A stretch of DNA of 62,661 nt, the filler included, from Diploschistes diacapsis (taxonomy: Eukaryota): NCBI GenBank assembly GCA_023645945.1. It is 17 parts of 17 records of this genome, joined end to end, with 100 filler letters (N's around TTAATTAATTAA, not from the genome) between each part and the next. Parts side by side here need not be neighbours in the genome. Positions count along the whole stretch, not along the records: positions 2,835 to 23,522 come from JALAIB010000333.1; 16 more parts are not named here. One strand, 5' to 3'. A model generated the notes under the pieces. The model saw only the letters and a program-made list of their open reading frames with translations. It did not search any database and had not been told where the DNA came from. The first letter of the stretch is position 1. Each line of letters begins with the position of its first letter. Below are positions 1,418 to 37,776 of the stretch, one piece after another. A program made the position numbers and the translations under genes.

Positions 1418-2834
1418 TAGATATCATTAGGATCGGGTGGGAGGTTTAGGGAACGGGGGGTTTTGAGGTTGCGCTTGCATAGACTACTGGCAGATTGTTG
1501 TTGACTGTATGTTTGTTCTGAGCGAGCGAGCGGGTCGGCTTTGGCTTTGGCTTGGGGCATATTATCAGTGCAGCGAATGTTCTTTTTGTTTTGAATAAGT
1601 AGTCTACAGAACCGTATCTCCTTTTGATGCACTTACCTAATGCCTTAACGTCGCTGAGTAAAAACCAAAACGAATTGCTCCGCCATCATTCGCCTAGTAG
1701 GTAACGGTAGTCTAGCTTGGAAGTGACCATCCACAAGGCTGAAGAACTTCTGGGCCACTCGCGCCACGCCCGATCGGGTATAGAGGAGATTGTAAATATA
1801 GCAAAGCTGAAAAGGAAACAACAAACGCCCCCAAATACTTCCCTTACAAGTCATGTTGTATAACGTCTTTCTGACTAGCGATAACAGAGGGGATGGAGCG
1901 AGGTGAGATGATGGCACGCCTGACATCGATTGTGCCTAAGAATTTATGGAGAGCTATAATGCTGGAAGCCTTCGGCGTAAACAGGACCAAAGGCCCAACT
2001 ACAGGTGTAGGTAAGTTGTTTGTGGAAGGGTCCAGGCTTATAGGCGTCCATGGGGCTTGCAGGGCTGGAAGATACTTTGTAAGGTGAAAGTTCGGTGCCC
2101 AGGTTCGACGGTGACAGGGCAGGTCTAAGCAGGCGCAGTAGTGTGCTTTGAGAAACGATGCTGTTATGTAGGTAGGTACTTGCCTTTCGGCTTGTGGATG
2201 GAGGTGTCCTTCAACAAGGTATGCACCGAGGAAGCACACATCCAGATTGAAGTTGCGTTACTCTGTTTGAAGAAGGGCTCATACACGGTCGCGGTACCTT
2301 TACTTGCTTCTTCAAAAGTGCAGAAAGTACGAGCAATATTTGCGTGCATACTTCTTGGTACCCGGACAATGAGTACTGTTACGATCTGACATGCAGCGCA
2401 GCGCACGTTTTCTTGTCTGGGCCTTGCTTAGTAGAGATCTAACCTGCAACACATGTACTTCTTGCGTTCTCCCTCCCTGCTTTCTTCCTTTCGATCCTGC
2501 CGCGACTCTGCTTCTGTGCTTGCGTTTCGCTTGTGTCGTTCAGTGGGTTTCTCTTTGGAGTGCTTCTACATATCGAATTGTCCTATGCTGGGTAACGATC
2601 TTCCCTTTTGGGCTTCCCCGTTTTCTTGCTCTTTTCCTTTTCTCTCCTCAATCCTTTTCACAACCCAAACGAGATGATCCTCGACTTTTCCCCTAACGAA
2701 GAAACCTCCCTCCCCTACCGCATCCCCCTCAACCNNNNNNNNNNNNNNNNNNNNNNNNNNNNNNNNNNNNNNNNNNNNTTAATTAATTAANNNNNNNNNN
2801 NNNNNNNNNNNNNNNNNNNNNNNNNNNNNNNNNN

Positions 2835-5800
2835 GATGTGGCGCGGCGTGAGTTCGCCTTCTTCTTCTTCTTCTTCTTCTTCTTCTTCTTCTTCTTCTTC
2901 TTCTTCTTCTTCTTCTTCTTCTTCTTCTTCTTCTTCTCCCTCTTCTTCTTCTTCTTCTTCTTCCTCCTCCTCTACCTCTTCGTCCTCGGGCGCGGGCGGA
3001 GGAAGAGGATAAAGCGCGGCGGATGCATGGATTTCGGTTGAAGAGGTGCGCGAGGTGTCGATGTCTCGGGGCCGGGGTTTGAGGGTTGTCGGTTTCTCTC
3101 TGTCGCTTGTAGCTTCGGAGTCCGTGAGGCCTTCACGGTGCTGAACGGCAACGGTATCGGCGTCTTCGCTCGCAGATGGATCATCTGCACCGTCCGACGA
3201 GGGAAGCCACCTTTCCGGGCTGATGCCGGGGATGGGCGGCGTCCGTGCTCCTGGGCCCGGAGCTGGCGTCGGGCGTAGTCTAGGCGAGCGGGGGGAACCA
3301 AAGGGATTGATCTTGGCGCGCACACTGATGGAGCGCCTTCGAGGCCCATCGACGCCAGACACAGTGACGGGAACGAAGCCGAGATCAGAAGCCTGCTGAC
3401 CGGATCTCCTCCGCCCCTGGTGGTACCGGACCGTATCCGAAACTCTACGCCGGCGCTTGAGCTCCGGCATCTGCTGCCGCATATACCTCTCCAGACTCTC
3501 GCAAAGTCGATCAAGAACCCACTCCGCCTCGCTTTGGTCGGCCATCATGGGACTATCCTCGCCGATCCAGTCCCAGTCTATAATTCCTTCGTCCGCCTCC
3601 TCCTCGTCGAGCATATGCGTGACGGAGCGCTTGTGGGTCCTGTTGAGTTTGGTGAATCGGATTAGACGCGTGAACTCTACCCACTCTTCGTAGGTATAGT
3701 GCCTGTAGTTGCCGTGCTTCAAGTCATTGGCAGTTGCGCGGATGGAGGCGGTTAATTTGTGCGCGAGATCGTGCTCGTCCAAGTGCTCCTCCGCCAATTC
3801 TCCGAGGGTCATACCCTGCCCCGGGGTTCCATTCCCTTCATCCTCTTCGTCCTCGGGGCCAACAGGGAAACCCTTTTCCAGCCTGCTCTTTTGCTTGCCC
3901 TGCTCAATCCAAGCTTCGAGCCAGCCGAAGACGCGGGGGTGTTTCCCGAAGACATGCCGAACGTACCCGCGCTTTGGCAGGACGGTAAGGTCGGCAAGGC
4001 TGAATGTACCTTGCTTATAGGCTGCGACGATGGTGTCGCCCATGGTGGAGATGAGGATGGTCATGGTGGGAATGGCGCAGAGAGACCAAACGATGAAGAA
4101 GGGCTTTCCGACGTTGGACCTGGGCGCGAGGTCGCCGTAGCCGACTGTGAGAAGGGAGACGTAGCAGAAGTAGAGAGACTGAAAGTAGGTATTGCCTTCG
4201 GCAAGCGAAAAGATCCAGGCACCGAGGCACCAGACGATGAGGACTATATGTTCGTCAGCATAGGCATGCATGTGTACGGGTACCGGATGACTCACAAGCT
4301 AGCAACGCCATGGAGAGACCAAGGTATTTCTTGAACTTCTTGTTGTTGTGTTGAATCTTTCTCATGGCGTTGAAACGGTCTCGCTCGTTGCGCAGCAGAT
4401 TGAGCTTGGTATTCTTGGATGTGACTTTACGTAACGTCCCCGTTCGTTGAATGCCTCGTGATACGGCGATATGATGAGCATGACGAACCGGGTAGGTTAC
4501 CCTGTCGGAGATGGACGAGGCCCATGACAAGGTACTTTTGGGCGATACAGGACTCTTGGCATACGCGGATCTGAAGCTCTTGGAGCTTTTCACGCTGCGA
4601 AGATCGGGAGTCTCGGGTGGCTCAAAGGCAATGGTTCGTTTCATCGGGTTGAAGGGTGCTGAGATCTCAGGCCGCACTCCAGATTTATTCTTCGTGTGGA
4701 ATGTTTCGAGTGCGTATCGCTCCTCCGCCCCCTGCGAGGGTGTGATAGTCTTTGAAATCGTCTTTAGTCGCCGGTTGTCTAGGTGCTTTCTCACAACCTT
4801 ATCGTGACCGAGCTGCTGGGCAAATTTGGCAATACTGCTGACCACTAGACCTAGAATGATGATGCCACCGACAGCATAGGGAAGGGTAAGACCTCGACCC
4901 ATGTCGTTGCTAGGGAAGAAATCTCCAAACCCGACGGTCAGTATGGTGACGTCCGAAAAGTACAGGGCTGGTGACTTATCAGGCCGAGCAGTTAGATGAA
5001 GAGGATTTTGTACGTACCGTCGGCATAACTCCAGTCGCAAAGATTGGAGAAGATGCCACCGCCTGCCGCAAGCCAGAAGAACAGTATCATCTGGAGGAAG
5101 CCGTAAGTAGAGTACCAAAGAGTCGTAAAGACTGTCTGTTACCGTCTGCAAAATCAGATTCCGCTGTTCATCATCTAACTCAAAGTGCTGGGGGTAGTGC
5201 CCCAAAACATATCCAAGCATATTTACCAGTAACATAAACGAACACAGAAGATACAGAACCGAGGCCATGACAGCATGCCAGTAACCTTGCGAGTAAAGCC
5301 CGTGTGTCGGATCCGGCGGCGCATAGAGGTGTATGCATATTGTAATGGCCATGAGAGTGCCGGACGCAATGAACCAGAGGACAATGGTCATAGGGAGGGC
5401 TACGATGTAACGGACGGCGCGAGTGAAGTTGAAGAGAAGGAAGAAATTGCCAAGGAAGCCGCAGGCAAGTGACAGGGCGTTGAGAGCGATGCACCATGAC
5501 GGATCCTGGTAGGGTACAGCATCCTCGGCCACACCTGGCGCAGCTTCGCTGTAATTCTCTCGCCAATACACGACGAGGGCGGCGATGGAGAGGACGTTGG
5601 CCATGGGGCCTAGAGTGGCGGCGAGAAGAGGGATAGCCGTGGAGGCGAACCACCAGTCCCTGGGTACATTCAGCATATGTCCTGGCCGCAAGCCTAGTAG
5701 GATATCAAGCCTCACTCAAACTCGTCATCCTCCGGCGGCCGTAAGCGGAATTTCCACCATTCCCGCGCTTGCGATACTGTCTTCTCCGAAGTGCCGTCCC

Positions 5801-7330: not shown

Positions 7331-10300
7331 TCAAGGCCGCTTCTTCGAACGGGCGTCGTCCACGACATCGCTCGTCCCCTCGAGCATCTGCTTGATCTTC
7401 GCCAGGCTGAGGCCGGCGCTGGAGAGCTGCACCACCACCAGCCAGACGCAGATCAAGTTTGCCAGGTGATGGAGCTGATAGGCGTAGGTGACGCCGTAGA
7501 GGGCTGCGTAGACCGCGAGGGTAAAGAATAGAATGTTGGTGATGTGTCGGAATCTGGGATGTTGTTAGCATGCCCAGCATGGATCGGCCTGGTTGAAGGC
7601 GTTCACATACTTTGACTGGACTCTCGGTATCATAGTCCCGCCCGTCAAAGATTCGACGAGCAGAACGAAGGGCATTATTGACAAAACATTATGATGCGAC
7701 GAAAACGGCGTAAGCCAGTGCACCGCCAGGTTATGGACCCAGACGACAAGCACGGGGATGTTGATGGGCAGAACCCAAAGCATTAGCACGAGAACTGAAT
7801 GTGTATAGTTGAAGAAGTTGCAGGTCGAAGTTGAGCGCTGCAGGATTGTTAGCACCGGAACAATAAGTAGCACCAGGCTGCACTGACCGCTTCCTGAGCC
7901 GCTCGCAACGCCCTGGCGTCGGTAATTAATTGTACAACGCAGGCAACTATGTACGCGAACTGATAAGGTATGGCCGTCGAAATCATGAAGAACAAAAGTA
8001 GGGTAATGACGAGGCGCCGTCGTGGTGAAGCACCAGAGAACGTGTAGCCCGCACCTCGTCTGTCCAGCCGTTAGCAAGCGGAAGATAACGGTGCGCAAGC
8101 TCCCACCTTTGGTACTTCCCTTGAAGCAACGACGGCGCAGACACTACAAGAGAGTAGAAAAGACTGAAGACTTGGACAATAGCGAGGGCAGCATAATTCA
8201 CTAATACGCAAGCACCTGCGCCCACCAGCCCAAATAGGGGTATCAAAAACCAAAAGAATGGATCCTGCGAACCAAGTAGTAAATCATTCTTGGTGTAGTC
8301 AACAGCTGACTCTGTCGCATTGCCCCCCCGCGGCAGGAATCCGTTGGAGGACGGCGTGGCCGAGCTGGCCAAAGAAATGGAGAAGACTGTCATCGCAAGG
8401 AGCAAGACGGGCAGCGAGGTACGTAGGCAGAGATCGAGGGATTCTGCAAAGGTGATGAATATTCCTACAAAAAGAGGTGAGCGAACTGGCAAACTGACAA
8501 CGGTCTGGGGGTTCTTCCTCACCAGTCTGGTCATGAATGACAAATTGCTTTCGAAGTACCAGAGCAATGACAACCAGTGGCACAGCTGGAAACACCGTTC
8601 TGTACCTCATCACAAGCTTTCCAAGGCTACCCAGAATATCGATGCGCATCGAAAGATGCATCGAGGTTCCGCAACTTGGGTCCGACCACATCTGCAGCGA
8701 AAGACCATCGTTACGTGACACACTTCTTAGAGGTGGCGGCATAAAGGGAGAGACACCGTGCAGGTTGATGTCTGCTTCTTTGATGTTGACGAAGTACTTT
8801 GACTCGTAAGGTTGCGAGATGTACTGTCGTGCAAAGGGAGCGAACAATGCGCCATCCGAGCATACTTGTACGCCAACACGTAATTTGTAGACGAGAAGAC
8901 TCGAGTGGACCGCCGGGATTTTGATGTCAGTCATCAGAGGCCTGTCGGCTGGGAGATTCAAATACAGGCCGGTGGTGAGAACTTGGATTAGACCGGCTTG
9001 GGTTTGGATTTGGGAGTGGCCGTTGTCACTAAACTCTGCAACAAGCCAACCGTCGACGGGGGCGGGGTTCTTGTCAACTACGGCGACAAACTGATACTCT
9101 GCAATATCATCCACGTCATATTGAAGGTACGAGAACGGCTGGGCGTCCTCGAAGGCGTAAGAAGATGAAGCGGTGGAAGCCGGCAGTTGGATGGTATCGG
9201 AATTGGCAGACTTGCAAGCCAACCTCGTCGAGCCAGAGCTCGATTCAGACAAATCCATGTCCATGGAGAAGAGTGACACCGACTGGCCCGAGTGGAGGGG
9301 GAAGACGCTACAGAAAAGCACGTCAAGACTGCTGTCGGCGCTGGGCGTATCCAGCGGCTGGTTACTTATGAATGTGAATTTTTTCTGTGGCGGAATATCC
9401 TGCGACTGTGGTACGGGCAGGAGGTATGTCCTGAGCTTGCCGAGCTGACCCAACCGATGGAGAACAAGCCTGTCGCCTGTCGCAAGAATGGTATTCGAAG
9501 TATCCTCCAGGGTCAGCAGCGTTGAAGGCTCCTTGCTCGGAAGCGTCTTCTCTGTAATGCTCTCCATGCCTGTCAGAAGCCATTTCTTGAAGTACCGCAT
9601 GCGCTCCGCTCTCGGCTTAGTTTGGCTAGATCTTCGAACATCCACGACATCGAAAAGTGCCCTCACGACCTTCTTGCGGAGCTGATCACACCAGAGGATA
9701 GAGAGATGGTCGGAGCCGGTCCATACGCCAGGAACTGTAGAAGTGAAGACGGTGAAGCCGTGAGTGTCCGGCACAAGAGAGGCTAGGCTGGCGTAATCCG
9801 ACGGCACGACGGTATCGAGTCCGCCTCCGGCGATCGAAACGAGCGTAACATGCCACAAAGGATTGTCGTTGGCCCATTTCTGCGAGTAAGCCTGGCGCCA
9901 ATAGCCATTAATCTTTTGATATGTGCTGATGATGTCCGCATCAAAAGACACAGGAGGTCGGGCATGGGGCGTTGATAATGTGACGATGGTGTTGACGGAG
10001 TTGGCTTGATAGTTGGACACGGTGAGCATAGTCCGAGCGACAATGCCTCCCATCGAATGGCCAACGATGACAACGGAGGTGGGATCCGGCAGACCCGGGT
10101 CCTTTCTTTGGCGCTGAGGATCATGGTAAAGCGAGAGTATGTAGGAGATGGCATCGTTCAGATATTCAGCCTGATCGAGCAGTGTCTGGCCGTGAAAAGC
10201 GGTAATGTCTTCGTTGAAATCGGCGGTGAAGAAGTCCAAATCCCTCACGCCGGACCTGATGGCCGTCTCATCGGTTTGTAGGTGCTCCGCAAAGTAGTGA

Positions 10301-10993
10301 GCCGCTTCCGCTGCAATGGCACGAACTTGTTTGTGACTGCCGGCGTTCCCGGTGATGAATAGCACAGGGACGCCACGGACCTGGGTCCGTTAGCCTTGAT
10401 ATGAGGAGCAGTTCAGCTGATACTACCGTCATGTCCTCATTGATTCCACCCTCGCGATAGAGATGCAGTGAGTACTTGCTCGCGAATCTCGTATGCTCCG
10501 TATCGAACCCGTCAAACTTCCCAAACACCGGCCTCATCAAACAGTTTTTGCAACCCTTTGGGTCCAGCTGTCGGGTGAAAAAGGAACTGACGATGGACAA
10601 GAGGAGGATTATCGATGTCGCGGTCGTCGTGAGGGTCAGCAGCGAACACTTCCACGGGCTCCGAAGCCTCGGACGACGCCATTCTGCAAAGTCCATGGCT
10701 TCCGCCCCGCTCTTTGCAGCGGAATCGCCCTGAACCGTTGTTGTACCCAGCTTTTTCTCTAAATCACTGCCATGAGCCCCACCACTCGATGCAGCCCATT
10801 GCAACGAATTCACCTGGTTCGGGGGCAGCGCTTTCTCGATCTTCCTTCTGTCGAGTGTATCCGAATCTCTGGATGTATCGAACTTGCCGGCTATGAAAGG
10901 ATCCTGCTCGCTATCTCGAGAATGAGGACCAGTCGCATGGGTGCGAGACTCTAGTTCGTCCTCGTCAGTCGAACCAGAGACCCTTCTTAGCAT
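7331..10993 (-). CDS. BST1: GPI inositol-deacylase (PGAP1/Bst1), multi-exon
   Basis: LFITGNAGSHKQVR and GHSMGG lipase motif, DFFTADFNED, N-terminal TM, C-terminal multi-TM region (NFFNYTHSVLVLMLWVLPINIPVLVVWVHNLAVHWLTPFSSHHN). Last exon reads ...RHITNILFFTLAVYAALYGV...SKKRP*, with the stop at 7331-7333. Confidence 0.95.
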
Positions 10994-11820: not shown

Positions 11821-13021
11821 TTACCACTTGATGACTTTATTGGGAAAGAACTCGTCAATAAGTTCCAGATAGTACGGCTAGGAGTTCCGTCAGCGACAAG
11901 AGGCCAAGCTATGAGTAAATTCTACCTTGAGCTCTTCCACCGATGGTACCGCGTCGTCCTTCGAATAGAGGTCGTAGGGGTTGAACGCTTGCACTGCGGC
12001 CAGCATCTTCTTGTCCTTTTCGTTCATAAATTGGGTATATGCTCCTTCGCTGTGCCACGGGTAGAAGCTGTGGTATCTGATCATGGCTAGAGCCTCTTCT
12101 GGAAGCGTTGATTGTTCTTTGACAACACTGAGTGGAACTGATAAGCCATAATGCTCTTTAGCAGGATTAGGTCGTCGCGGTGACGCAGTGGTGGGATATC
12201 AAGAACGGACTTGAAGTAGTCACCGGCATAAAGATATGAAAAGGAGTGTACGGTAACATAAGGACCAAAAGGGAAGCGAAAGAGAAACAGCGGGCAAGGA
12301 GGGCAGCAAAGCGCAACAGAAGATCTTGTACACACTGATAAAGATACTCATCGTGTCCCCAGGATAGCATTACATTCTCCATGCCACAGCCGGGGGAGTA
12401 AATGCCATTGGGCGTGGCGTAGATGGGTTCGCAGGAGTCTGGATTGCCCTCGAACGTTTTGGGCAGGATGATCCCCTTATCAAAGCCGCATCCAACTGGA
12501 AATGTGTCTCCCACGACGGACCACTGCCCTGGAGCATCGAAGAAGAAGAGTAACTTCCCCAGATCATGGATAAGCCCGGTCAGCTGAAACCATCGAGGCT
12601 TGCCATCCCTTCTGATAGCCTCGGCAGACTGGAGCAGGTGCTCAATCTGGCTTAACGAGGTATCGGGATCAGACTCGTCGATGAGTGTGTTCAGCTTCTC
12701 CATTGCCTCCCAGACAGTCATCTCAGCCCTAGTCTTAGATTTGAAGTCGTTCCGTGCTTTCAGATTGTATGCAACTGTCTGCTTCTCATGTTGCTCTTTA
12801 TAGAAGGCCTTGACTCTATCCGTTGATTCCTTGTATTGCCTGAACTTGGTCTTGTCCTTGTCGACATCGAATTTCGACGCTTCATAGATACCTCTCTCGG
12901 CCTTGATCCGTGCCTTGAGCACATTCACTTCGTCGATGGCATCAGAGATCTCCTCCAACGCCAGTCCGCTTCGGTCAGGGTGTAGAGAGCGTGCTTCTTC
13001 AACTATGGGAGCTGGAGCCAT
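11821..13021 (-). CDS. MIOX: Myo-inositol oxygenase, 3 exons (introns 12128-12335 and ~11880-11926)
   Basis: Diiron motifs [61 protein letters not shown]. Ends [18 protein letters not shown]. Confidence 0.95.
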
Positions 13022-13947
13022 AGCAAACTTCCCCGCGCTTGAACACGGCAAAACAAAAGTTAGGCAAACTAAGAATGGCAGCGAGGCACGATTACATTAA
13101 ATCAATTCCAATTCGGTAAAGCCCGGATAGGCCCGGTTCAGGTGGGCCAGGGCTGCAGGACGACGTTAGTTTGAAAGCCATATTCAGTCTCAAATATCAA
13201 AACGAGATCTTCGCATTCTATTCTAGTGCGCGCTGTATGGCAATAACCTGGACGCCCCGAGGTATTTCTAAGGAACCAGATACCATTGCCATCAGTCCAG
13301 TCCAGGCTGCCATGTAGGGAAAGTCAAGTTTGCTGCCATTGAACCTATTTGATTACGCTCAAATGGCTAAGGGGCCTGCAGAGTCCTATTATGATCCAAA
13401 AATACTAACTTGTACGAGACTGGGCGGACTCATCTCATACAGCCTTTCTCGGCGTACAATTGTTAGCATGTCGCACCTGTTTTTCTGGGGGACTGCGGCA
13501 AAAATAGGAATTAGTCAGCTTAAAGTTGGACGATACCCACGTACTAGGTATCTACTCGGTAGAGGTTATGGAGCAAAACGGTGTTGGATACTGAGCCCAG
13601 CAGTCCAGCCATTTAATACCATTATATCTACTATTAAAGGTATTTTTGCAAGTTCGGCTTCCATCACTCACAACTAATCAGACCTCGGAATATTTCCAAT
13701 CCATGCTTTTGGTTGGCTCCAAGTGTTATGTATCATGGTGTTTATCCTGCTTTGGCGACTACTCTGCAAAATTTACCCAAAATAACAGCCTAGAAACCTC
13801 GCTCTATGAGGACGGTACAGCTAATCACCTTCGCTTGCTTCCGGTGTACTGAGATCTCTTGCAAACGTTCATCCAATCAGATGCCAATTCTCTCAGCCAA
13901 AGAAACTCCAAACGTGACAATGCGAAACAGTAGCGGCTGGCGGTACT

Positions 13948-14869
13948 TTAAGAGGACTTGCCATTGCGCTGGCTGTCTTGCTTTGCCATATATGGAGGTG
14001 GGATCCCAAAATAGTTTGAAGATCGTGCCCCGTACTTGCTTCCAAGGAACTTGTATTTGTCGTGGCCTGGAGCACCACAACCATGGAAGTTGTTGCTCTC
14101 CTCAGCGAACTCTGGATTCTCATATTCAAAAATGTTTCCCTTTCGGGTTTCCTTCAGCTCTTCAGAAGCTCGAGAAGACTCAACTTCACCAGTATCTACA
14201 CCTTTAGGCTCTTCCTGGCTACCTTCACTGGAAGTGTCATTGGCTCCGGTGCTTGCAGACGTTGAGCCTGGAGGGCCATTCGTCTTAACACGAGGCATCG
14301 GCACGGCCTTCGCTTTCCCTATCTCCTTACCTCCAATTGCATTCTTTTGGAGTTTTCGCACAGGCGGGACTTCGAACGTCTTATCAGCATCGCTTCAAGG
14401 AAGACCGGAGAGAAAGCCTACTTCGTTTCCGTACACAAAACCTTAAGAGCACGCTCTGCAGATCCGTTTGGACGGTGGCGATACTTAAAATCAGTGAATT
14501 CTTTTGTCTTTCGATCGTCGTCAAGATGCTTTCGAGTCGAACGTTCTCCGTGTCTTTGATCCAAATTTTAAGGAATCGTTTTGCGAGTATCCTACTCTGC
14601 TGCGCAAGAAGCTTATTCAAAACTGCCACTAAACTGCCCACAAAATCTGTGAGGCTATGTAGTTGGGATTGAATATTTGGCTTGTGGAGCGCAGGTATCT
14701 TTCGAATTTCTATAACAATGAAACGCAGTACTTCGACTTCTCGGAATTGAAGCCGAAGTTTCTCAGGCCTCGATTTGACCTTCTGATACACCTCAAAAGC
14801 GTACGCCAGACTACCGACAAGATAACTCGTCAGCTGAGCAACAGAAGCTATCGCTCCTATAGCGTCCAT
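13948..14869 (-). CDS. Gene A: SesA/HeLo-like N-terminal (cell-death effector-type) domain, low-complexity linker, C-terminal two-fold pseudo-repeat (candidate amyloid prion-forming domain); ~290 aa, 2 exons
   Basis: The N-terminus MDAIGAIASVAQLTSYLVGSLAYAFEVYQKVKSRPEKLRLQFREVEVL is typical of fungal STAND N-terminal helical domains. A ~52-55 nt intron (GTAGGC or GTACGG donor, GCTGAT branch, AAG acceptor, ~14370-14431) joins ORF 14384-15067 in frame to ORF 13948-14361. The C-terminus has repeats FEYENPEFAEESNNFHG and YKFLGSKYGARSSNYFG. Confidence 0.7.
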
Positions 14870-15961
14870 ATTGGTGTGCAGAAGTTGGGTCTCCGACTGC
14901 GACTTTCGTGATATGAGAGAGTAAAACTTACTTCGATCCCTAAAAAGGAAGCCATCAATGCGGGGGAGCTGACGCAGCCGAGAACTGCAGTGCAAGAGAA
15001 GCAGAGGTGGGGGGGAAGCCGCTGTCTTATAGCGCTTGGAGCAATCCATCCAATTAATGGCGAGCATGACAATTCAGGTGTGCAGAATAGGAGGTACGGA
15101 TGTGGCAAGCTAAAGAAGTAATGGGCACAAGGCTAGGCTTCAAGATTCATACTTCTTCACGACCTCCATAGCCTTGAGCCCAATGAGCTGAATAATGAAT
15201 AATGATCAATCAATGAGCCCGACTGGGTCTTCTCACGACGCTCAGGCTCTATTTAATGCTTCAGCCTTGCTGATGCTGTGGAGGCATGATTGGCTCAGCT
15301 AAGCTAAGCTGCATTGGGTAACTTCTCTGGATCTGATAGGGTTAAGAGGGTTCTAACTCGAGTTTAACATGAGGAAGTAATGGTATGATTAACTTGGGCT
15401 CAGCACAGTCTCTATCTCCTCAGTATCGCTACCCCTCTCATGTGATCCATCTTCACTCTCTATTTATACTCCGTTGATCTTTGTTCATACTTGGCCATAC
15501 TGGCGTGTTTGTCATGATTTAGTAAGGAGAAGATATTTGCATAAAAAACTAGCGCCCGATGCCTGTTCGCCCAAACCACATCGTGTGAACCCCCATTTCG
15601 GTGTTCAATATGAGCCATGACGAGCATTTTTGTTTGGTGTTGGGGTTTAGGAGGCAGTGCTAATGATGTCCTAGCCAGCAGAATATGGAACATGGGCCGG
15701 AACAGAGTTCCTCCATCGCGCACAATCAGCAGAACGGTTAATAGTAGATAGCTAGCTATTTCAGTATCCAACATATATAGCACAACCAAGATTGAAACAC
15801 TGCCCGATTTGTTGCTTGAGTTGGAATCAGATAAACTAATACCCATTCTATGGTAGATCCCAATACGAAACCAATGTACTCCATACAGAGGCGATAAGTA
15901 CACAATGCTCCATGTCAATGGCGGGGTCCCGATCTTAATCTCCCGTCCAGCTTGATCTATA

Positions 15962-16897
15962 TTAGCGGAACTGATTTTGGCCCTCCCCAAATCTTGTCTT
16001 CTGAAAACTCGCTATCCTTGCGCCCTTCTCACCGTTAAAGGTGTTGTCATAATGCTCAATGAAGGTTGTATCGTTAAACATAAAGGGGAAATCGGTGTTC
16101 ATCGATGCCTCTCGTCGTTCTTCCTCTTCTTGCCTTGTAGCGGCTAAGTTTTGTTCATGAGCCCCTATCTCTTCGATTCAGCAGGAAACCCATGGATCTA
16201 TGATTTGGGCTTAGTCCTTACCTCTGATCGACTCCATTACACCAAGAAGGTCGGATCTGTCTAAGACCCACACTGAGACGTGGAGATGTCTCACTTTGTG
16301 CAACGACGCCAAGATGAGGTGTGCAATGGTATCCCAAGTCGCTCGGAGAAGCCCAGGCATCTTGTTGCCCCTATCAATGCTACAAATTATCAAGCTAAAC
16401 AGTATCCGATAGGAGGAGTCCACGCCTGGAAAGCTAATCGACACTTTGTAAGAGGATAAGGATAAGGGTTATGCCCTGGCTTTGACCATGAAGAATTGGA
16501 TGTTGACTCGGAATGATTGCCTGAAGAATATTCCTGGATGATGTCCTTCTCTGGGACAATGCACCTTTATATCTCCAACGGCTTCTACGGGCGCACCACA
16601 TGGATGGATACCAGCCTTTCCACAGCGTTAACCACCATGCGCTTGCCAACTTCGAGAGCATTGCCGCTGCGGCAAGGCTGTCGAGCTGCTGCTGCTCTGT
16701 TAACCCAATTACGATGTGAAGTTGGAGCGAATAGGAAGCACAGAACATGGTAAGAACCTCGAGCACAGCCTCTGCATGATCGTCGAGCCAGTCACACGAG
16801 GGCTTAAACAGCATCGCGAAAGTCGGGCGAATTCCTTCACTTACAACAGCTACCGTCTTAATGCAAGAACATGCAGTGAGATTGGTTCAATTGCCAT
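15962..16897 (-). pseudogene. Gene B: frameshifted HeLo-like/SesA-type effector gene with a C-terminal two-fold pseudo-repeat related to gene A
   Basis: ATG at 16897 gives MAIEPIS, then after a frameshift TACSCIKTVAVVSEGIRPTF, resembling the MDPLSITAS...-type N-terminus. A second frame change or intron occurs near 16440. Intron GTAAGG...GCTGAAT...AG (~16165-16221) joins ESIRG in frame to AHEQNLAATRQEEEERREASMNTDFPFMFNDTTFIEHYDNTFNGEKGARIASFQKTRFGEGQNQFR*. Confidence 0.55.
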
Positions 16898-22202: not shown

Positions 22203-23111
22203 ATGTCCTCCGATGGCGCTTCCACCACTGGCGATGATATCGCTGTCAAAGTCTCGACTTCCCAAACAGAAGAGGAGGAAGTATGTCCTTCCTCACTCGA
22301 CCTCAAACCTCATCCTTCGCTACACCCCTTCCCTCGACCTCTACTCACCATAAGTCTCCTACATTCAACTCCATTACCTTCGTTTCCCCTCTTCCTCCGC
22401 CCCAACGCCGCCCACACCCAAATCCTCCCTCTTCCTCCATCCCTACAGCGCCCACAACCTCTTTTCCCCCTCCTCCCTCTTGCTCGCACTAACTGGCTCC
22501 CACCCAGAGAAATATCGGCGTGGTAAAACAATACATGTCCCTCGCCTACTCTCCGCGCCTCAACAAGGGCCGCGACACCGTCCGCCACCTCTGCACGTCC
22601 CGACGCCAGCTTCACCGCGCCCACCACCTTCCCCGGCTGCTCGACACCGCTCGACTACGCCGACTCCCACGCGAAGGTCATGGCCTGCTTGTCGGACCTG
22701 CACATCGAGAGCTACGACGTGCTGTTTGCGAAGGGCGGGCACGTGCTGTTGAGGTACAGTGCGACGGGGAGCCACGCGGGGGAGCCGCACGACGGGATAC
22801 AGCCGAGCGGCAAGAGGGCGCACTGGACGGCGAGCGCGATCTTCGAGGTTCGGGACGGGAAGCTTGCTAGCTTTACGAAGGAGTGGGACAAGTGAGTTTT
22901 TCTTTTCCCCCCTCCTTGTCTTCTCTCTTTTTTTCCTCTTCCCTCGCCGAAATGGTTTTTTCTGGGATTCCCATGGTGAAAGGGGGCCCGAGAGAGAGAA
23001 CCACGCACGCGTTTCGCTTTGTTGGGGGATAACAGGCTAACGTTGTTGGTGCGCGCCAGACTGCACATGTGGAAGCAGCTGGGCTGGATGAAGGGGGACG
23101 AGTACGCATGA
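22203..23111 (+). pseudogene. SnoaL-like / NTF2-fold ester cyclase family gene, 3 exons, with one +1 frameshift at ~22598
   Basis: RNIGVVKQYMSLAYSPRLNKG...HLCT/PDASFTAPTTFP...DLHIESYDVLFAKGGHVLLRYSATGSHAGEPHDGIQPSGKRAHWTASAIFEVRDGKLASFTKEWDK/LHMWKQLGW. Introns have GTATGT and GTGAGT donors. Confidence 0.8.
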
Positions 23112-23622: not shown

Positions 23623-24148
23623 ATTTTAGATTTTTTAGCTATAGTGTCCGTGTCCGTGGATTCACGGAAGTACAGTGTCCGTATTAATATTAATGTTTTA
23701 AAATTTTTAATTATAATATCCGTATTCGTGTTTTTATTATAATATAATGTCCGTATTAATATCCGTGCCGAAAGAATTTTTATTACGGTATCCGTGCCCG
23801 TATATTTATCGAAATACTTTAAAATAATTTTTTAATATTAGTAATTTTAAAATTATTACGTTTATTTTTTACGCTTTTATTTTTTTAAAAATTTTTTACC
23901 GCGATATTTCGTTAGATTTATCGTAATATTTCGATAAATTTATTATAATATAATGTCCGTGTTAGTATCAAGGTTTTAAATTTTTTAATTATAGTATCCG
24001 TGTCCGTGCTTTTATTACAGTATAATATCCGTGTTAGTATTCGTGATTTAAAATTTTAATTATAGTGTCCGTGTCAGTGTTCGTGTTTTGAAAATCTTTG
24101 CTGTAGTGTCCGTGTTAGTGACCGTGGCACTAAACGGCTAGCCTAATT
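23623..24148. mobile_element. DNA transposon end (hAT-like or MITE) with an array of subterminal (A)GTGTCCGTG repeats; related segment at 30705-30818
   Basis: More than 10 degenerate GTGTCCGTG copies ending ...ACGGCTAGCCTA. 30705-30748 is the reverse complement of 23624-23666 and ends ...GACGGCCAGTTTA. The superfamily is inferred. Confidence 0.5.
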
Positions 24149-24429
24149 CAATTATTCGATGTCGCAGTGTTTTCGCCGTTAAAAAACGCGTTAACTTAAA
24201 AGACGGATTATACTATTCGATTAAATAAATTACGTATAATACGTTTGGAATAAATTAAATTATTTTTAATAATTCGGAATCGAGTTATTACGAATCGAGA
24301 CGCTTAAATAAATTTTATAACCGTGTTTAATAAACTCGTTTCGACGTATCGGATCTTATTATTTCTATCTTTTAATTTTTTATTAATCACGAACCGACAA
24401 AATTTACATTTATTTTTATTATATAATTC

Positions 24430-24816
24430 AGATCTTAAGTTTTTAAATCTTTTCGATTTAATTTACGTTAAATAACGTAATCGGTACCCGCGTTCGTAAC
24501 CGTAATAATTACCGGAAAACGTAATTTTAATAAACGATTAAGCGTAATAAATCAGGTACTAATCCGGGCTTATAACCTATTTAATAACGTAATAAATATA
24601 TTAAAATTTAAAGATCTTCTTTAGAAGGTTATTTTACTTTATAAACTTTTATTTTCGTAAGATACGCTAAATTTTATTACTTATACTATTCCTTAATCGG
24701 TCTAGTTAAAATTCCAGAAAGTTCAGCTGAACTGAACCTCGGAATTCAGCTGAACTGAACCTCCCTCTGGAACTCAGTCGAACTCCCAGCCATGCCTTCT
24801 GCCTGTCTGCTCAACA
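24430..24816 (-). mobile_element. LTR copy (family of 30837-31394) abutting a pogo fragment (24817-24939)
   Basis: Near-identical to ~31010-31394, including TTCAGCTGAACTGAACC x2 and the terminal CTGCTCAACA. Confidence 0.75.
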
Positions 24817-25543
24817 TTCTTTACGAAACGTTATAAACTTAATATACGTCGATTTAAACATACGGGTTATTTAATTCGAATAACGTCGAATCGGATTAAC
24901 TAATTCTAAAACGATTTATAACGTTTAATTATATTTTTCNNNNNNNNNNNNNNNNNNNNNNNNNNNNNNNNNNNNNNNNNNNNTTAATTAATTAANNNNN
25001 NNNNNNNNNNNNNNNNNNNNNNNNNNNNNNNNNNNNNNNTTATAAACCCGGGTTAATCTATTCGAACTATTTCGTTTTTAATTATTAAAAATAAATTTTC
25101 TCGATAATTAGAACGATTACGAACGCGGAATCGAATACATTAATCTTATTTAAAAAAAACCTAAATCGAAGAGATCCGAAAGCCCAGAATTTAAATTATA
25201 AAATCTTAAGATAAATTAATTCAAAAATAGAAGATATATTATTATAAAAGATCGCGGGACCTTATTACGCTAGTTAAGAATAAACTTAAACAAGAAGTAT
25301 TTAATTCCCGGATTCATCATTTGTTAGATTAACGAAAAACCTCCGACCTCCTTTCCTTTTTGGATAAAAATCGAAGTTTAATTAAATTTCTACGCTGAAT
25401 CCTCTCGATCACCTTGACAACCTTCGATATTGAGTAGAGACGTTATCTTCTTTATTAAATCTAGTCGAATCTTTTATCAACCCTCGAAACCTAGTAAAAT
25501 CGCTACCTTCGCTGTTGGACCCTTTTCGATCCTTTAATAATTA

Positions 25544-26220
25544 ACGTGTTTCACGGGGATTCCGGCCATCCCCAGATTCCGGCCACCTTAAATTACTATC
25601 GTTAACATTTTACGGTTTTTAGATATAATCTGTTTTTCGTAATTAGAATCTAATCGATCTAAATCGAATCTATTTTTTTCCTTTTCATCCTCCTCGATTT
25701 TAAAAACGCGACGACGTTTTTTACGCGTTATAAATCGTTTCGAAATTATTCGACTCGATATAATCCGAACTATTATTTTAAGAACTTCGTTTATACTAAA
25801 TATAAAACGACTTTTTAATTTAATTCGTTTATTTAATTTATATTTTTTATAATTATTAAAAACGTTTTTTATTTTCGGTTTTCTTTACGAAACGTTATAA
25901 GCTCAATATACGTCGATTTAAGCATACGGATTATTCAACTCGAATAACGTCGAATCGGGTTAATTAGTTTTAAAACGGCTCGTAACGTCTAATTAAATTC
26001 TTTATTAACCTTTCGTATTTCGGTAGTATTTAATAAAAAATTATATAAGAAAAATAAATTTAAATCGAATTGATTCGAGATTAAAAAAGGATTATAAAAT
26101 GGAAGTAAAGGGGTCCGATAGGTCGAATAAAGCTTATTAAACACGATTATAAAATTAATAAATTATAATTTAGTATTTATAAAATTTATCTAAACGTTTC
26201 GACTTATAATAACTCGATTT
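25544..26220 (-). mobile_element. Fot1/pogo (Tan1/Vader-like) DNA transposon 3' end, RIP-mutated, family A
   Basis: TA followed by ACGTGTTTCACGGGGATTCCGGCCATCCCCAGATTCCGGCCACC, a TIR with an internal direct repeat. The adjacent sequence is a degenerate transposase C-terminus. Copies at 29289-29740 and 37038-37676. Confidence 0.8.
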
Positions 26221-26801
26221 TTGTAACGCCCAAAGGTGCGCCCTGGGGTTCAGGTCCCCCTGCTGCCACAGCCACGCACCTACATATAGTGTAATAGGGA
26301 AACAGTGCTTCGGGGTTCCTGAAAGCATTGTGTTAGTCTTTTGGCTCAGTGGGATANNNNNNNNNNNNNNNNNNNNNNNNNNNNNNNNNNNNNNNNNNNN
26401 TTAATTAATTAANNNNNNNNNNNNNNNNNNNNNNNNNNNNNNNNNNNNNNNNNNNNTCAATAATTCTTCGAAATTAATCGTTATTTTTATTTTATTTACA
26501 AAATATTACTTTTCAATCAATTATCTATCATATATCAAAAGTGCGCATTGATTACGGCATCAGTTAATTTTTTTAAGCGAATTAAAAATAACGACTCAAA
26601 AAAGTGGACTTTTGAATCTTTAAAAATCTTCTTTAACCAACCAAATAATATTTTATTTAAAAGATCTTTTATGAGCGGTTTTATGCGTAGATTTCATTAA
26701 ATTATAAAAACAATATTTTCCACGTTATACAGTGGTTGTGTGGCCTTATTCTTCAAAATCCGAAAGATTTTAAATAATTTGGCCATACAACGGCTAGTTT
26801 T

Positions 26802-27135
26802 TGTTACGATCCAGGGTACTAGTTAGTCACCTGGCACGTCACAGCTAGTCGGGCACTTCCCAACCATTCCTTATATATAGCCAACCACGGACGCTAGGTC
26901 ACGTGATTGACAGATATCTAGTAGTAGACGTCTATCAGGGACAGATCTATCTGGATAGTTATTTGTTAGTAATAGTTCTGTCGCAGCAGCTCTATTGTCG
27001 GCAACCAGCTGTCGCCTTAAATTATATAGAAATATCATTATGGTTCCTTTAAATTAGGGCGTGTTTATTTTTATAGATATCTTTAACGATTACTCGAGAT
27101 CAATTTATATTCGTTATCTTTTATTAATAAATAAT
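26802..27135 (+). mobile_element. LTR retroelement end, second copy of the element at 1-319
   Basis: TGTTACGATCC start and by-eye similarity to the reverse complement of 1-319. Confidence 0.6.
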
Positions 27136-28722
27136 AGTCTTCTTAAAAATTAATATAGATTTATAACCGATTTATTTCTTTTTTTATTATATTTTTCTTT
27201 TAATAGAGACTAAATTTATTTTAATTAATATCTCGTATTTATATTATAAAAATAAAGATTATAACATTTAAATTGTAAGGCCAAGCAAGGAGCATGCCAA
27301 GAGTCGGACAAGCGGCACTCAGGGTCTTGGCTTGCGGGTACTTGAAGGAAGATTTTGCCCTTCTTACTCTCTTCTTTTCTTTAATAATTAATCCTAGCAT
27401 GAACCTACCCTACGTATAATTATCTTGCCACATTATCGTATTCTATTTCTTATAGTTTTAATCACTTTACCTTTCTTAAAGACGACGATCCTATAAAATA
27501 ACACGTTCTTCACAACGTATACGTAGAATAAACCCACGCAACTAAATTAAGATAGAAAAAGTGAAGGAAGAGAAAGAAGTAAACGATCTAAAATTATTTC
27601 ACTTAATGAAGAAGATTTAGATCATATCGAGCAATAAGAACGAGACTCGTAATTTAAAAACAAAACACTAGTAAACGAGTCGTTAAAATAAGAAAATAAT
27701 TTCGAATCTATATTAAGGAATATATTAAAAGCAATAAAAAACATACTATTAAAAATAAAATAAGATATAAAGNNNNNNNNNNNNNNNNNNNNNNNNNNNN
27801 NNNNNNNNNNNNNNNNTTAATTAATTAANNNNNNNNNNNNNNNNNNNNNNNNNNNNNNNNNNNNNNNNNNNNGGGTGGATGATGGAGGGGGTGGATGCGA
27901 GTCGGTTCACGAGAGTGGATTGATAGCTATTCAGGGTGGTTGGAGAGGCAAGGCGGAGACGTGAGATTGGAACACGTTGACGATGTGGAAGTGGCTGGAC
28001 TCTGTTTACTGTTTTGGGAGCTCGGGCCTTGGACTCGTGGTCGAGGTGGAGCGTTCGATCGCTGGATTTTGGACTCGTGGGTGACGGTCGCGCGCTTTGC
28101 TAACGGGGATTGTGCGTCGATGGGTGAACCTTGATACGACTTGCTGGGGAGATCCTTTGTACTTGCTGGAGATGTAGCTGGATGGAAGTTGGCAGGGAGT
28201 TTGTCGAATTGTATTCGTATTTGGAACATAGACATAGTGCACCATCCTCAAAAGAGTATCCTTCTCCAAGTGTTCAAGCCAAGGGGTTACGGTGAACATG
28301 GTTAGGAATGTTCTATTCACGAACGTTTCTGCCGCCTTGCTATTGTCTTACCGTCTCAAATAGGTACCGCTTCAACAATGCTTCGAAGCCACGCTGTGTA
28401 CTTGAAATTTCACCAGCCAAGCTTACAGAGACTGCAGCAGCTTCAATCTGTTTGTGCTTCACAATTTTCCTATTCCGCACGCATTTCCCCTCGGGCTCTC
28501 ACGCGCATTCCAATAAGGTCCCAGCTAGCATACTAAAGTTCTTATTCCCAGAGAGAGCTGTAAGCGGGCCACGCAATAGAAACCACTTGAGCAGGGCAAG
28601 CACACGCGAAGCAACTAGTTTTCGCACAAGCACCGCAGTTCCCCTGGGCTCGATATCTATACCCAAAGGCCAAACAAGATCCATGTATGCAAACCTCAAG
28701 TGATTTGTCCTTTAAAAGCTAT

Positions 28723-29288: not shown

Positions 29289-29740
29289 AATTAGACGTTG
29301 CGAGTCGTGTTAAAATTAATTAATTCGATTAGACGTTATTCGAGTCGAGTAACGTATATATTTGAATCGATTTATATTAAGTTTATAACGTTTCGTAAAG
29401 AAAACCGAGAACAAAAAACGTTTCTTAATAATCGTAAAAAACGTAAATTAAATAAACGAATCGAATTAAAAGGTCGTTTTATGTTTAATATAGACGAAGT
29501 TCTTAAAATAATAATTTAGGTTAAATCGAGTCGAATAGTTTCGAAACGACCTGTAACGCGTAAAAAACGTCGTCGCATTTTTGAAATCGAGAAGGATAAA
29601 AAAGAAGAAGATAGATTCGATTTAGATCGATTAGATTCTGATTGCGACGAATAGGTTGTATTTAAAAACCGTAGAATGTTGGCGGTAGTGATTTGAGGTG
29701 GCCGGATTCTGGGGGTGGCCGGACTCACCGTCAAACACGT
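29289..29740 (+). mobile_element. Fot1/pogo family A 3' end with TIR followed by TA
   Basis: RKENREQKTFLNNRKKRKLNKRIELKGRFMFNIDEVLKII is a RIPed transposase C-terminus. Ends GGTGGCCGGATTCTGGGGGTGGCCGGACTCACCGTCAAACACGT-TA. Confidence 0.8.
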
Positions 29741-30227
29741 TAGCTTTAAATTAGGTTTTAATTAATTATAGGAAAACCGAAGAACGTGGTCGACATATGA
29801 AGCTAAATATTGATTGTAATTTAGTTAAAGAGTGCCGAGAGGAATAAAATAATATATAGAACAGGTTCTAATTACTATATAATGGGAGAAAGGGGGAAGT
29901 TTCTTCGAATTCTGATTCAATATATGAACTAAGTATAAACAGATATTATCCGTTGAAATATAAGTTGTTTTAAGGATTGAACGACCAATCTCGTTGTTAT
30001 TAATTATTAATTTATAGTCAAATCATTGTATATATAAAAGATAGTATTTTAAATGCTATTAAGGGCAACGAGCCCTTTATAGATATTAGATGTATGGATG
30101 TTTAAAGGCATCGTGGCCCATTGCATTATAAGCGACAGCAGCGAGGGCTGGTATAAGCGAACCCCCTAGTAGCAATAGTAGTAGCAGTGGCAGTGGTAAC
30201 AACTAATAGCCATAGTAGCTACTACAG

Positions 30228-30604
30228 ATATACGCGATATAGTTAATTTAATACGCGTAGTTCGAAATATGCCGCCGGTCGGACCACGATGGACATAAAA
30301 TTTCGTACGAAAATAAAAAACGTTAAAAATGCGATTTTAACGTAAGATCGATTATTAGAAAATATTAATTAAAGATCTATAAGTTGTACGAAACTGGTTC
30401 GACCTCGTACGTAATATGATTATTAAAAATAATATTCTCGATTCGGATATTTATAATTTCGATAAAATCGGCTTTTTATAGGACTGTTAGGCCATATAAA
30501 GGTCGTAATTATTTTAAATCGTAAACATAAATTTCGTACGAAATAATTTAATAATCGAGAAGGGGTTTTAATTATCTAAATTATTTACGCGAACGGTTAT
30601 GCGT
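30228..30604 (+). mobile_element. pogo/Fot1 family B transposase fragment (DDE region), RIPed
   Basis: SDIYNFD(K)IGF is a degenerate DIYNFDETGF motif. Homologous to ~58984-59345. Confidence 0.7.
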
Positions 30605-30836
30605 NNNNNNNNNNNNNNNNNNNNNNNNNNNNNNNNNNNNNNNNNNNNTTAATTAATTAANNNNNNNNNNNNNNNNNNNNNNNNNNNNNNNNNNNNNNNN
30701 NNNNCCGTGAATCTACGGACACGGATACCGTAGTTAAAAAATTTAAAACACGGAAACTGATACTGTTAGTGTCCGTGTTATTGACACGGCCGTGTCAGTG
30801 TCAGTGACGGCCAGTTTAGTTCAGCTGAACTTCGAT

Positions 30837-31394
30837 TGTTGACGAGAGGAAGGAGGAGAGGTTTTTCTTTGGCCTATATAGATGAAGATCTGGATCTAAG
30901 TATTTCTTATTTAGGCCTATCCTTGACCAGCGTAATAAGGTCCCGCGATCTTTTATAATAATATACCTTCTATTTTTAAATCGGCCCATCTTAGGGTCTT
31001 ATGATTCTGATCCTAGGCTTTCGGATCTTTTCGATTTAACCTACGTTAGATAACGTAATCGATGCCCGCGCTCGTGTCCATATCAATCATCGGGAAACGT
31101 AGTTTCAATAAACGATTAAACGTAATAAAGTAGATGTAAAGCCGGGCTCATAACCTATTTAACAACGTAATGGATATATTGAAGTTTAGAAGTCTTATTT
31201 AGAAGATTATTTTACTTTATAGACTTTTATCCTCGTAAAATACGCTAAGCTTTATTACCTACACTATTCCTTAATCGGTCTAGTTGGAATTCCAGGAGGT
31301 TCAGCTGAACTGAACTTCGGAATTCAGCTGAACTGAACCTCCCTCTGGAACTCAGTCGAACTCCCAGCCGTGCCTTCTGCCTGTCTGCTCAACA
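30837..31394. mobile_element. Complete ~558-bp LTR (TGTTGA...TCAACA)
   Basis: Perfect inverted termini. Partial copies at 24430-24816 and, inverted, ~25110-25325. One end is shared with the copia LTRs at 34005-34225 and 61865-62085. No clean TSD. Confidence 0.75.
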
Positions 31395-32020
31395 AGAATA
31401 TTAGAAAATTATAATAAAAGCGTTTAGAACGAAGTTAAAATATTTAAACGTTTATTATCTATAAATAAACGGTTAGACAGAAAGAATAAATTAAAATCTC
31501 GAATAATATCTACGGTATTACGTTAATCAGAATATAAATAATTAAATTAAACTGTTATTACAGGCCGAATACTACCTTAACAAGAAATATAAAGAAATTA
31601 AAAAGATTTAAAATACATAATCATTTAATAACGAGACATTTAATAATATTAAGAGAATTAAGGTCTTAAGGAAGAATCCTTAACTGAAAAAAGGAGATAA
31701 GGTTTATTTATATATAGATAATTTTAGGACACGTAAACCCTTTAAAAAACTAAATTACGTCAAGGTCGGACCCTTTTTAATCGATAAACAACCCGTTATA
31801 CCGAACGAAATCAGACGAGTTAATTATCGACTCAAGTTACTTAAAAATATCAAAGTTTATCTAATATTTTATTCTAGATATCTCGAATTAGTACACTTAG
31901 ACACGCCGTTATAAAAAACCTTTTACTTCGAATCAGATAACGAGAACGAATACGAGGTCGAGATAGTGGTACAGTACAAAAACAATAAATACTTAATTAA
32001 ATAGAAAGGTTATTTAGAAT
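31395..32020 (+). mobile_element. Ty3/gypsy chromovirus integrase C-terminus (GPY/F plus chromodomain), RIPed; inverted copy at 32121-32405
   Basis: Degenerate LKKGDKVYL...RKP-KKL--VKVGPFLI...NYRLKL...EYEVEIVV...YLIK(W)KGY. Confidence 0.8.
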
Positions 32021-32409
32021 NNNNNNNNNNNNNNNNNNNNNNNNNNNNNNNNNNNNNNNNNNNNTTAATTAATTAANNNNNNNNNNNNNNNNNNNNNNNN
32101 NNNNNNNNNNNNNNNNNNNNTTTTAAGATTATCCGTATATAAGTAAACTTTATCTCCCTTTTTCAACTAAGGATTCTTTTTTAAGATTCTAAATCTCTTA
32201 ATATTATTTAATATTTTATCGTTAAGTAATTATATATTTTAAATCTTTTAATTTTTTTATATTTATTATTAAAGCAGTATTCGGCGTTTAATAATAGTTT
32301 AATTTAATTATTTATATTCTAATTAACGTAATATCGTAAATATTATTCGAATATTTAATTCATTCTTTTTATTTAATCGTCTGTTTATAGATAATAAACG
32401 TTCGAATAG

Positions 32410-37676: not shown

Positions 37677-37776
37677 NNNNNNNNNNNNNNNNNNNNNNNN
37701 NNNNNNNNNNNNNNNNNNNNTTAATTAATTAANNNNNNNNNNNNNNNNNNNNNNNNNNNNNNNNNNNNNNNNNNNN

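Follow-up and report, generated by a model that had tools for sequence, protein, structure and literature searches.

The stretch of DNA analysed here, referred to below as the window, comprises 62,661 nucleotides of the lichen-forming ascomycete Diploschistes diacapsis (assembly GCA_023645945.1), and on its minus strand lies a gene, here called Gene A, that encodes a small protein ending in two 17-residue repeats, R1 and R2. An earlier note on this DNA had ascribed to these repeats the logic of the HET-s beta-solenoid. Two minus-strand reading frames are involved, one from an ATG at 14869 to 14384 and the other at 14361-13948. Donor and acceptor positions were scanned and the joined translations compared with the protein held at NCBI, and a single donor/acceptor pair in the scanned range gave a translation identical to that protein (P0004/KAI4151979.1, 289 residues, 'MAG: hypothetical protein LQ340_003165 [Diploschistes diacapsis]', where MAG stands for metagenome-assembled genome). 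Exon 1 (14422-14869) starts with the ATG at 14869 and encodes residues 1-149 together with the first base of codon 150. It is followed by an intron of 52 nt (14370-14421, GTAGGC...GCTGATAAGACGTTCGAAG, ending in AAG) and by exon 2 (13948-14369), which encodes residues 150-289 and the stop codon at 13950-13948. The open reading frame (ORF) form of exon 2 is P0001, and by exact look-up its 90% cluster also contains KAI4151979.1.

The gene model is sound. The intron had previously been placed at about 14370-14431, of which the acceptor agrees with the scan, but the donor is 10 nt away from the position that reproduces the NCBI protein (intron 14421-14370). Gene A is indeed split in two in the ORF track, as had been noticed, and the split is due solely to prokaryote-style ORF calls (P0001 and P0005); the accompanying concern that automated annotation could miss the gene is not borne out, KAI4151979.1 being already a complete two-exon eukaryotic model. 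Two plus-strand ORFs, 13806-14207 and 14036-14446, were considered as genes and set aside, there being no Pfam match (13794-14204 was scanned) and the homologues favouring the minus-strand frame.

The encoded protein has a three-part layout, in which an N-terminal half is followed by a linker and then by a repeat module of about 42 residues close to the C-terminus. The linker (residues 151-229, 14131-14367) is polar and charged and is predicted as coil, as judged from composition, AlphaFold2 and alignment; its residues 151-226 are poorly conserved, with fractions of 0.32 for charged residues, 0.45 for Gly, Ser, Asn, Pro and Thr together and 0.00 for aromatics. The acidic unit R1 (residues 230-246, minus-strand frame 14130-14080) is separated by the eight residues CGAPGHDK (residues 247-254, 14056-14079) from the basic unit R2 (residues 255-271, 14055-14005), both units being delimited by translation, shuffles and alignment. 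Behind R2, comparison of the units leaves a Pro-rich C-terminal tail with one Tyr (residues 272-289, 13951-14004). Translation of the minus strand confirmed the coordinates and sequences of both units and every residue pair that had been listed for them, exactly as claimed: opposite charges at unit positions 2 (E/K), 7 (E/K) and 11 (E/R), identical residues at 12 (S/S), 14 (N/N) and 17 (G/G), and aromatic pairs at 1, 3, 8 and 15. Gln is absent from both units and from the loop.

Taken by itself, the repeat of the window protein is no better than chance. R1 and R2 are identical at 3 of 17 positions and give a BLOSUM62 score of 25, a value that shuffling the exon-2 protein reached 603 and 588 times out of 2000 in two runs, and that shuffling its last 65 residues alone reached 66 and 65 times out of 2000. 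The significance of the three opposite-charge pairs depends on the positions compared: when the charges of R2 were permuted over all 17 positions P was 0.0145, and when they were permuted over the 9 variable positions only it was 0.118. These two results, together with the tiny size of the family (3 sequences), are what favours a reading in which the repeat and its charge pattern are incidental to a fast-evolving disordered tail and have no specific role, and it is the homologues that speak against it.

When the exon-2 protein was searched exhaustively with phmmer against 1.84 billion representative sequences (E<=0.001), we recovered the query and only two homologues, P0002 (143 residues, E 4e-7) and P0003 (108 residues, E 3e-5), both of which are unannotated ORF fragments equivalent to exon 2. 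A profile built from the three tails found no relatives beyond those three among proteins of 59-251 residues. Both units are kept in the same register in P0002 and P0003, at an overall identity of 32-38%, and the loop between them has 7 residues in both homologues against 8 in the window protein. The P0003 units are identical at 8 of 17 positions, and their score of 41 was reached by 1 of 2000 whole-protein shuffles and by none of 2000 tail shuffles; the score of the P0002 repeat was reached by 202 of 2000 and 15 of 2000, respectively. In the alignment of the three sequences the repeat block, which makes up 42 of 137 positions, holds 14 of the 21 invariant columns, the remaining 7 being spread over 95 positions (Fisher P=2e-4). 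It is therefore from the homologue data, namely register, shuffles and invariant columns, that the repeat is seen to be real and under constraint; it becomes convincing only once the homologues are added, and two imperfect in-register repeats that can be aligned are present at the level of the family.

The unit may be written [FYW]-x-[FY]-x4-hydrophobic-[AG]-x2-S-x-N-x-[YFH]-G, two such units being joined by a short Pro-Gly turn. The Ser, the Asn and the final Gly are present without exception (6/6 units of the three proteins). Other residues separate the units by their order rather than by protein: in all three proteins R1 has Ala at position 9 and Glu at position 10, where R2 has Gly and Ala, and the unit is preceded by Ile or Val in the case of R1 and by Lys in that of R2. 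The summed score of the units in register was 91 and dropped to between -22 and -80 when they were shifted by 1-6 residues, a comparison that is partly circular because the units were picked by their shared pattern. The loop, which had been described as a flexible one of eight residues, has that length and the sequence CGAPGHDK in the window protein, but it is not freely flexible, its Pro-Gly and Lys being invariant in the homologue alignment (3/3 proteins). As a further observation, R1 of P0003 scores 42 and 47 when compared with R2 of the other two proteins, and 32 and 40 when compared with their R1. This closer likeness of P0003 R1 to the R2 units of the others suggests that the strongly acidic R1 of the window protein and of P0002 is a derived state and that the two units were once more alike.

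The charge complementarity between the units is conserved in part. At unit position 7 the two units carry opposite charges in all three proteins, with E/K in the window protein and in P0002 and the polarity swapped to K/E in P0003. Position 11 is complementary in two of the three (E/R in the window protein, D/R in P0002, L/G in P0003) and position 2 in one (E/K, E/S and S/R in the same order), so that complementarity at two of the three claimed positions is not conserved in the alignment, and P0003 besides has Lys in both units at position 4, a like-charge pair. The permutation of charges over all positions gave P of 0.043 for P0002 and 0.70 for P0003, and over the variable positions 0.165 and 0.64. 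Complementarity that had been called exact is so for the three pairs of the window protein, whereas across the family it extends to position 7 only. Covariation of R1 and R2 among homologues, which had been put forward as a test, rests on a single swap, at position 7, because there are only three sequences. Even so, the retention of both units at 32-38% identity, the enrichment of invariant columns in the repeat block and the significance of the P0003 repeat all go against a purely incidental pattern, which was already disfavoured and which we consider very improbable.

A second possibility is that the tail is one of low complexity that associates with itself reversibly, as a labile cross-beta assembly or condensate, in which the units would be merely the stickiest segments and no defined two-rung solenoid would form. 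The composition of residues 227-289 would suit such a tail, with Gly, Ser, Asn, Pro and Thr at 0.41, aromatics at 0.16 and aliphatic residues at only 0.06, and its S-x-N-x-[YF]-G segments may resemble the kinked segments of aromatic residues with Gly, Ser and Asn. The position-specific conservation, the fixed loop of 7-8 residues in all three proteins and the residues that follow repeat order nevertheless favour a defined structure, and the region is short and has only two units. We regard low-complexity assembly as improbable, if slightly less so than mere chance, and both of them as less likely than a third alternative, a conserved tandem motif that forms no amyloid, which is taken up below.

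For the N-terminal half, a relationship was suggested by language-model features only. In the ESM Atlas, residues 1-155 reached a score of 0.96 (200 of 256 shared features), a measure not calibrated for parts of proteins, to clusters from Ascomycota in which PF17111 (HeLo-like, 'PigL_N') is found in 16-28% of members, the best cluster having 28%; of 30 matches 20 belonged to the PF17111 family set, and others carry PF17107 (SesA). The half may thus be a putative effector domain of HeLo-like/SesA type. AlphaFold2 placed helices at residues 3-32, 44-56, 67-89, 93-107 and 113-147 and coil elsewhere, at a pLDDT (predicted local distance difference test) of about 42, which does not give the fold; run without an alignment it returned 41.5 at full length and 42.6 when the N-terminal half was modelled alone, and the models were too poor to use. 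The most hydrophobic window of 19 residues is formed by residues 3-21. Searches with the other tools were negative within their scopes: a word-indexed comparison of exon 1 with longer proteins yielded no relatives among 591 candidates, phmmer with full-length P0004 against proteins of 158-506 residues returned the window's own ORF only, Foldseek with the low-pLDDT model of the N-terminal half gave 0 matches in the PDB at E<=0.001, and the ESM Atlas gave no usable match for the tail.

On the strength of the layout and the conserved repeat we tentatively favour, with a confidence somewhat short of even, the reading that Gene A encodes an effector of HeLo-like type with a divergent and compact two-rung amyloid switch of HET-s type, which would be templated by a receptor encoded elsewhere. 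The protein would then consist of a helical HeLo-like/SesA (MLKL-type) domain of about 150 residues whose first helix is hydrophobic, some 80 residues of disordered linker and the repeat module of about 42 residues, and its tail would be unfolded at rest. Templating would make R1 and R2 the two rungs, stacked parallel and in register, of a cross-beta solenoid with a period of 25 residues, in which the aromatics and the ladders of Ser and Asn would form the core, the invariant Gly would provide the arch closing each rung and the opposite charges would face outward. The template would most likely be a single N-terminal copy of the motif on a NOD-like receptor (NLR) encoded elsewhere in the genome, or else a copy of the tail already converted. 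On the model of HET-S, HELLF and HELLP, the N-terminal helix of the effector domain would be freed once the tail folds, to attack the membrane and bring about regulated cell death.

A number of observations weigh against this reading, among them the chance-level repeat of the window protein and the inconstant charge pairs given above, as well as several motif positions compared at the end. The assignment of the N-terminal half hangs on one language-model look-up, which was not calibrated for parts of proteins. Pfam gave no match for exon 1 at E up to 1 and none for P0004, P0002 and P0003 at E up to 10, and PF11558 (HET-s_218-289), PF17046, PF14479 (HeLo), PF17111, PF17107 and Ses_B were not matched in the Pfam scans of either half. 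Sequence searches of the PDB with both halves returned no HET-s or HeLo match, the best hits (E 0.26 and E 1.7) being unrelated proteins. Of the receptor nothing was seen in the window: NACHT, NB-ARC, WD40, TPR and ANK domains were absent from the 19 of 31 ORFs of at least 150 residues that were scanned, the longest ORF of each locus included, no NLR-type domain was found in 69 of the 158 ORFs of at least 90 residues, and a search in six frames detected no third copy of the motif. The HET-s-like logic proposed in the earlier note is thus supported in part, by the layout, the conserved pair of repeats and the charge swap, and finds no support in Pfam, in an NLR, in a third copy or at several positions of the known motif.

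The same observations bear on the main rival, according to which the conserved tandem motif has nothing to do with amyloid. The module could be a small monomeric beta-meander or pair of hairpins with a Pro-Gly turn, or the tail could be disordered and its units a pair of short linear motifs, either for binding to a second protein or for intramolecular control of the N-terminal domain; the contrast between an acidic R1 and a basic R2 would in that case be a means of pairing within the molecule or of recognising a partner. Such a reading accommodates the tight and conserved turn of 7-8 residues with its invariant Pro, Gly and Lys, which is unlike the variable loops of published motifs, as well as the missing NLR and third copy in the scanned window, the lack of any Pfam or PDB tie to amyloid motifs and the N-terminal domain whose family is not set by sequence. 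The architecture and grammar of Gene A, in contrast, fit the effector side of fungal amyloid signalling, with an in-register repeat, the Gly and the columns of Ser and Asn, and so do the alternation of aromatics and the separation of units by repeat order; moreover, no known folded domain or family of linear motifs matches either. We judge this rival unlikely on balance, though it is the alternative to be taken most seriously.

The surroundings of Gene A were surveyed in the same window. Downstream it adjoins a gene for myo-inositol oxygenase (11893-13096, minus strand; Pfam MIOX, E 4e-81 and 7e-29), and its match on two frames indicates that this gene is split by an intron. Directly upstream are open frames at 15463-16011 (183 residues) and 16437-16886 (150 residues), both on the minus strand, which have no Pfam match and are not NLR-like. 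The other neighbours are of an ordinary housekeeping kind. On the minus strand they include a two-pore-type potassium channel with two Ion_trans_2 matches (2787-5715), the glycosylphosphatidylinositol (GPI) inositol-deacylase PGAP1 in three frames (7565-10389), a weak F-box-like match (37729-39087) and ribosomal protein L27e (41134-41562), and on the plus strand a SnoaL-like ORF (22527-22892) and a SWIB-domain protein (52779-53873). Also on the plus strand is an uninterrupted frame of 2102 residues (42231-48539) for a very large, uncharacterised protein. No Pfam model was above threshold in it, the UBA_2 match having E 3.9e-4 and 20.8 bits against a cut-off of 23. The window is fungal in character, with gene blocks of normal GC content interleaved with AT-rich blocks. 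The latter (1-2000, 23801-28000, 29501-37600 and 58501-62661) have a GC content of 0.28-0.35, TpA/ApT of 1.08-1.09 and (CpA+TpG)/(ApC+GpT) of 0.59-0.79, compared with 0.70-0.82 and 1.09-1.25 for the gene-bearing blocks. By index thresholds for repeat-induced point mutation (RIP), the AT-rich blocks look like relics of RIP-mutated repeats.

If the tail of Gene A forms a two-rung amyloid that can be templated, the signalling principle of HET-s and its related motifs would reach a lichen-forming fungus. It would also follow that a beta-solenoid switch tolerates a core of aromatics, Ser and Asn and a connection between rungs that is almost without a loop, which would bear on the control of amyloid specificity by sequence and on barriers to cross-seeding, and the short motif could serve for locating the cognate receptor in genomes whose effector and NLR genes lie apart. 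A bolder proposal, which we think rather unlikely, is that Gene A represents a previously undescribed family of amyloid signalling motifs, a two-coil solenoid with a period of 25 residues and a tight Pro-Gly connector, in which a core of aromatics and Ser/Asn ladders replaces the aliphatic core of HET-s. The motif is so far known only in the Diploschistes MAG protein and in the two fragments P0002 and P0003. Not being coupled to any neighbouring NLR, the module might on this proposal act on its own as the prion switch of a HeLo-like killer domain, or else respond to a receptor encoded far away. Should the tail form no amyloid, what remains would be an ordinary hypothetical protein whose tandem motif is conserved.

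The amyloid signalling motifs described for fungal NLRs include the HET-s-related amyloid motif (HRAM), sigma, PP and PUASM (PMC9815663; PMC12261475). Sigma (Ses_B), PP (RHIM-like) and PUASM resemble the tail of Gene A in being short C-terminal effector motifs that are templated by the N-termini of NLRs, and in being rich in Gly, Asn, Ser and aromatics (PMC9815663); they differ from it in that they usually occur as single copies. PUASM reads FxGxGxQxxGxGxF and PP consists of a Gly, a hydrophobic residue, Gln, a hydrophobic residue and Gly (PMC9815663). Membership of Gene A in PP, PUASM or sigma was rejected on these grounds, the signatures being absent, with no Gln in the repeat block and no Ses_B match in Pfam. 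Some likeness was also seen to the NLR05/08/22/29/44 meta-family of Agaricomycetes, considered a variety of HRAM-like motifs by its authors, in which some motifs end in N-N-H-Y-G or N-N-V-Y-G, comparable to N-x-[YF]-G here (PMC9815663). These motifs differ from that of Gene A in belonging to the receptor side, in coming from basidiomycetes, in being single copies and in the remainder of their sequence, and the exact five-residue ends of the units of the Gene A family had 0 occurrences in the 11 supplementary files of PMC9815663 that the search covered. In Moniliophthora the N-termini of NLRs carry an amyloid-like motif ending in N-N-H-Y-G or N-N-V-Y-G (PMC9815663), from which it appears that an N-x-Y-G ending recurs across fungal amyloid-like motifs that are otherwise different.

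The closest comparison is with HET-s and the HRAMs. The latter consist of two pseudo-repeats, each of 21 residues, in the C-terminal 80 residues of a HeLo, HeLo-like or SesA protein shorter than 310 residues (PMC4518210), double HRAMs being carried typically by HeLo and HeLo-like proteins (PMC9815663). In them Gly at position 19 is perfectly conserved and forms the beta-arch, positions 5, 8, 10, 16 and 18 are hydrophobic, large polar residues (N/Q/H) occupy 3 and 20, R/K is preferred at 15 and the outward positions are charge-complementary between the first and second repeats, r1 and r2 (PMC4518210). A variable and poorly conserved Gly-rich loop of 6-18 residues joins the repeats in 154 of 155 proteins, the remaining one having a connector of 2 residues, and a short segment with aromatics and Gly follows r2 (PMC4518210). 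An adjacent NLR with a single copy of the motif, r0, was present in 98 of the 155 cases, and PF11558 matched only 38 of the 155 proteins (PMC4518210); pairs of effector and NLR that are not adjacent are also suspected, and in one known case the two genes lie 95 kb from each other.

Gene A shares with these proteins a small size and the location of its units, having 289 residues with both units within the last 60, as well as an N-terminal domain predicted to be helical, a linker predicted to be unstructured and two pseudo-repeats that in our model would stack in register. It has in common with them units that are distinct by repeat order and a short segment with an aromatic residue after r2, and perhaps also charge complementarity between repeats at non-core positions. 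For a comparison by position, unit position i was placed at HRAM position i+2, with the last Gly at 19, a mapping that was our choice. In this frame Gly is found at 19 in 6/6 units, and a hydrophobic or aromatic residue at 5 in 6/6, at 10 in 6/6 and at 18 in 5/6, and the opposite-charge pairs fall at positions 4, 9 and 13 in the window protein, at 9, 13 and 20 in P0002 and at 9 in P0003, with the like-charge pair of P0003 at 6. The remaining positions depart from the consensus. Position 8 is hydrophobic in only 2/6 units and mostly polar, and position 16 is hydrophobic in 0/6 and is an invariant Asn, where HRAMs have a hydrophobic residue or, in HRAM5, a Gln. At position 3, F, Y or W stands in 6/6 units and N/Q/H in 0/6; position 20 holds C, I, K, E, G and R in place of a polar sealing residue, the pair G-[DN] after the arch is lacking, and R/K occurs at 15 in 2/6. 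The connector has 3-4 residues in the 21-residue frame and is conserved, and the period of 24-25 residues with a conserved Pro-Gly turn is unlike the HRAM arrangement of 21-residue units and a variable loop of 6-18 residues. Gene A differs further in having no PF11558 match, no adjacent NLR among the ORFs scanned and an N-terminal half that is unmatched by the Pfam models of HeLo, HeLo-like and SesA.

Because several of these defining positions fail, Gene A lies outside the described HRAM subgroups, being a member of none of them. Among published HRAMs, nevertheless, there are members that resemble it in detail. Supplementary rows show F/Y at 5, Y18-G19 and, after a 9-residue loop, 'PGH' or 'PGS' where r2 begins; the r0 rows of some NLRs end in S-T-N-H-Y-G, close to the end of R2 in P0003, the rows being from gene models of Lentithecium, Polyplosphaeria, Trypethelium and Glonium (PMC4518210); F/Y at 5, Y18-G19 and 'PGH' are shared with Gene A itself. 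HRAM5 has the hallmark 'QxFG', with Phe at the same core position (bioRxiv 10.1101/2020.07.06.188508). The aromatic core of Gene A, which had been taken as the mark of a distinctive variant, is accordingly less distinctive than claimed, and because published HRAMs already show aromatics at core positions, its aromatic character is a matter of degree and not a new principle. The failure of some consensus positions does not exclude a solenoid fold either, because the beta-solenoid is retained at 17% and even at 5% identity to HET-s (bioRxiv 10.1101/2020.07.06.188508), and it is by analogy only that Gene A works like an HRAM protein.

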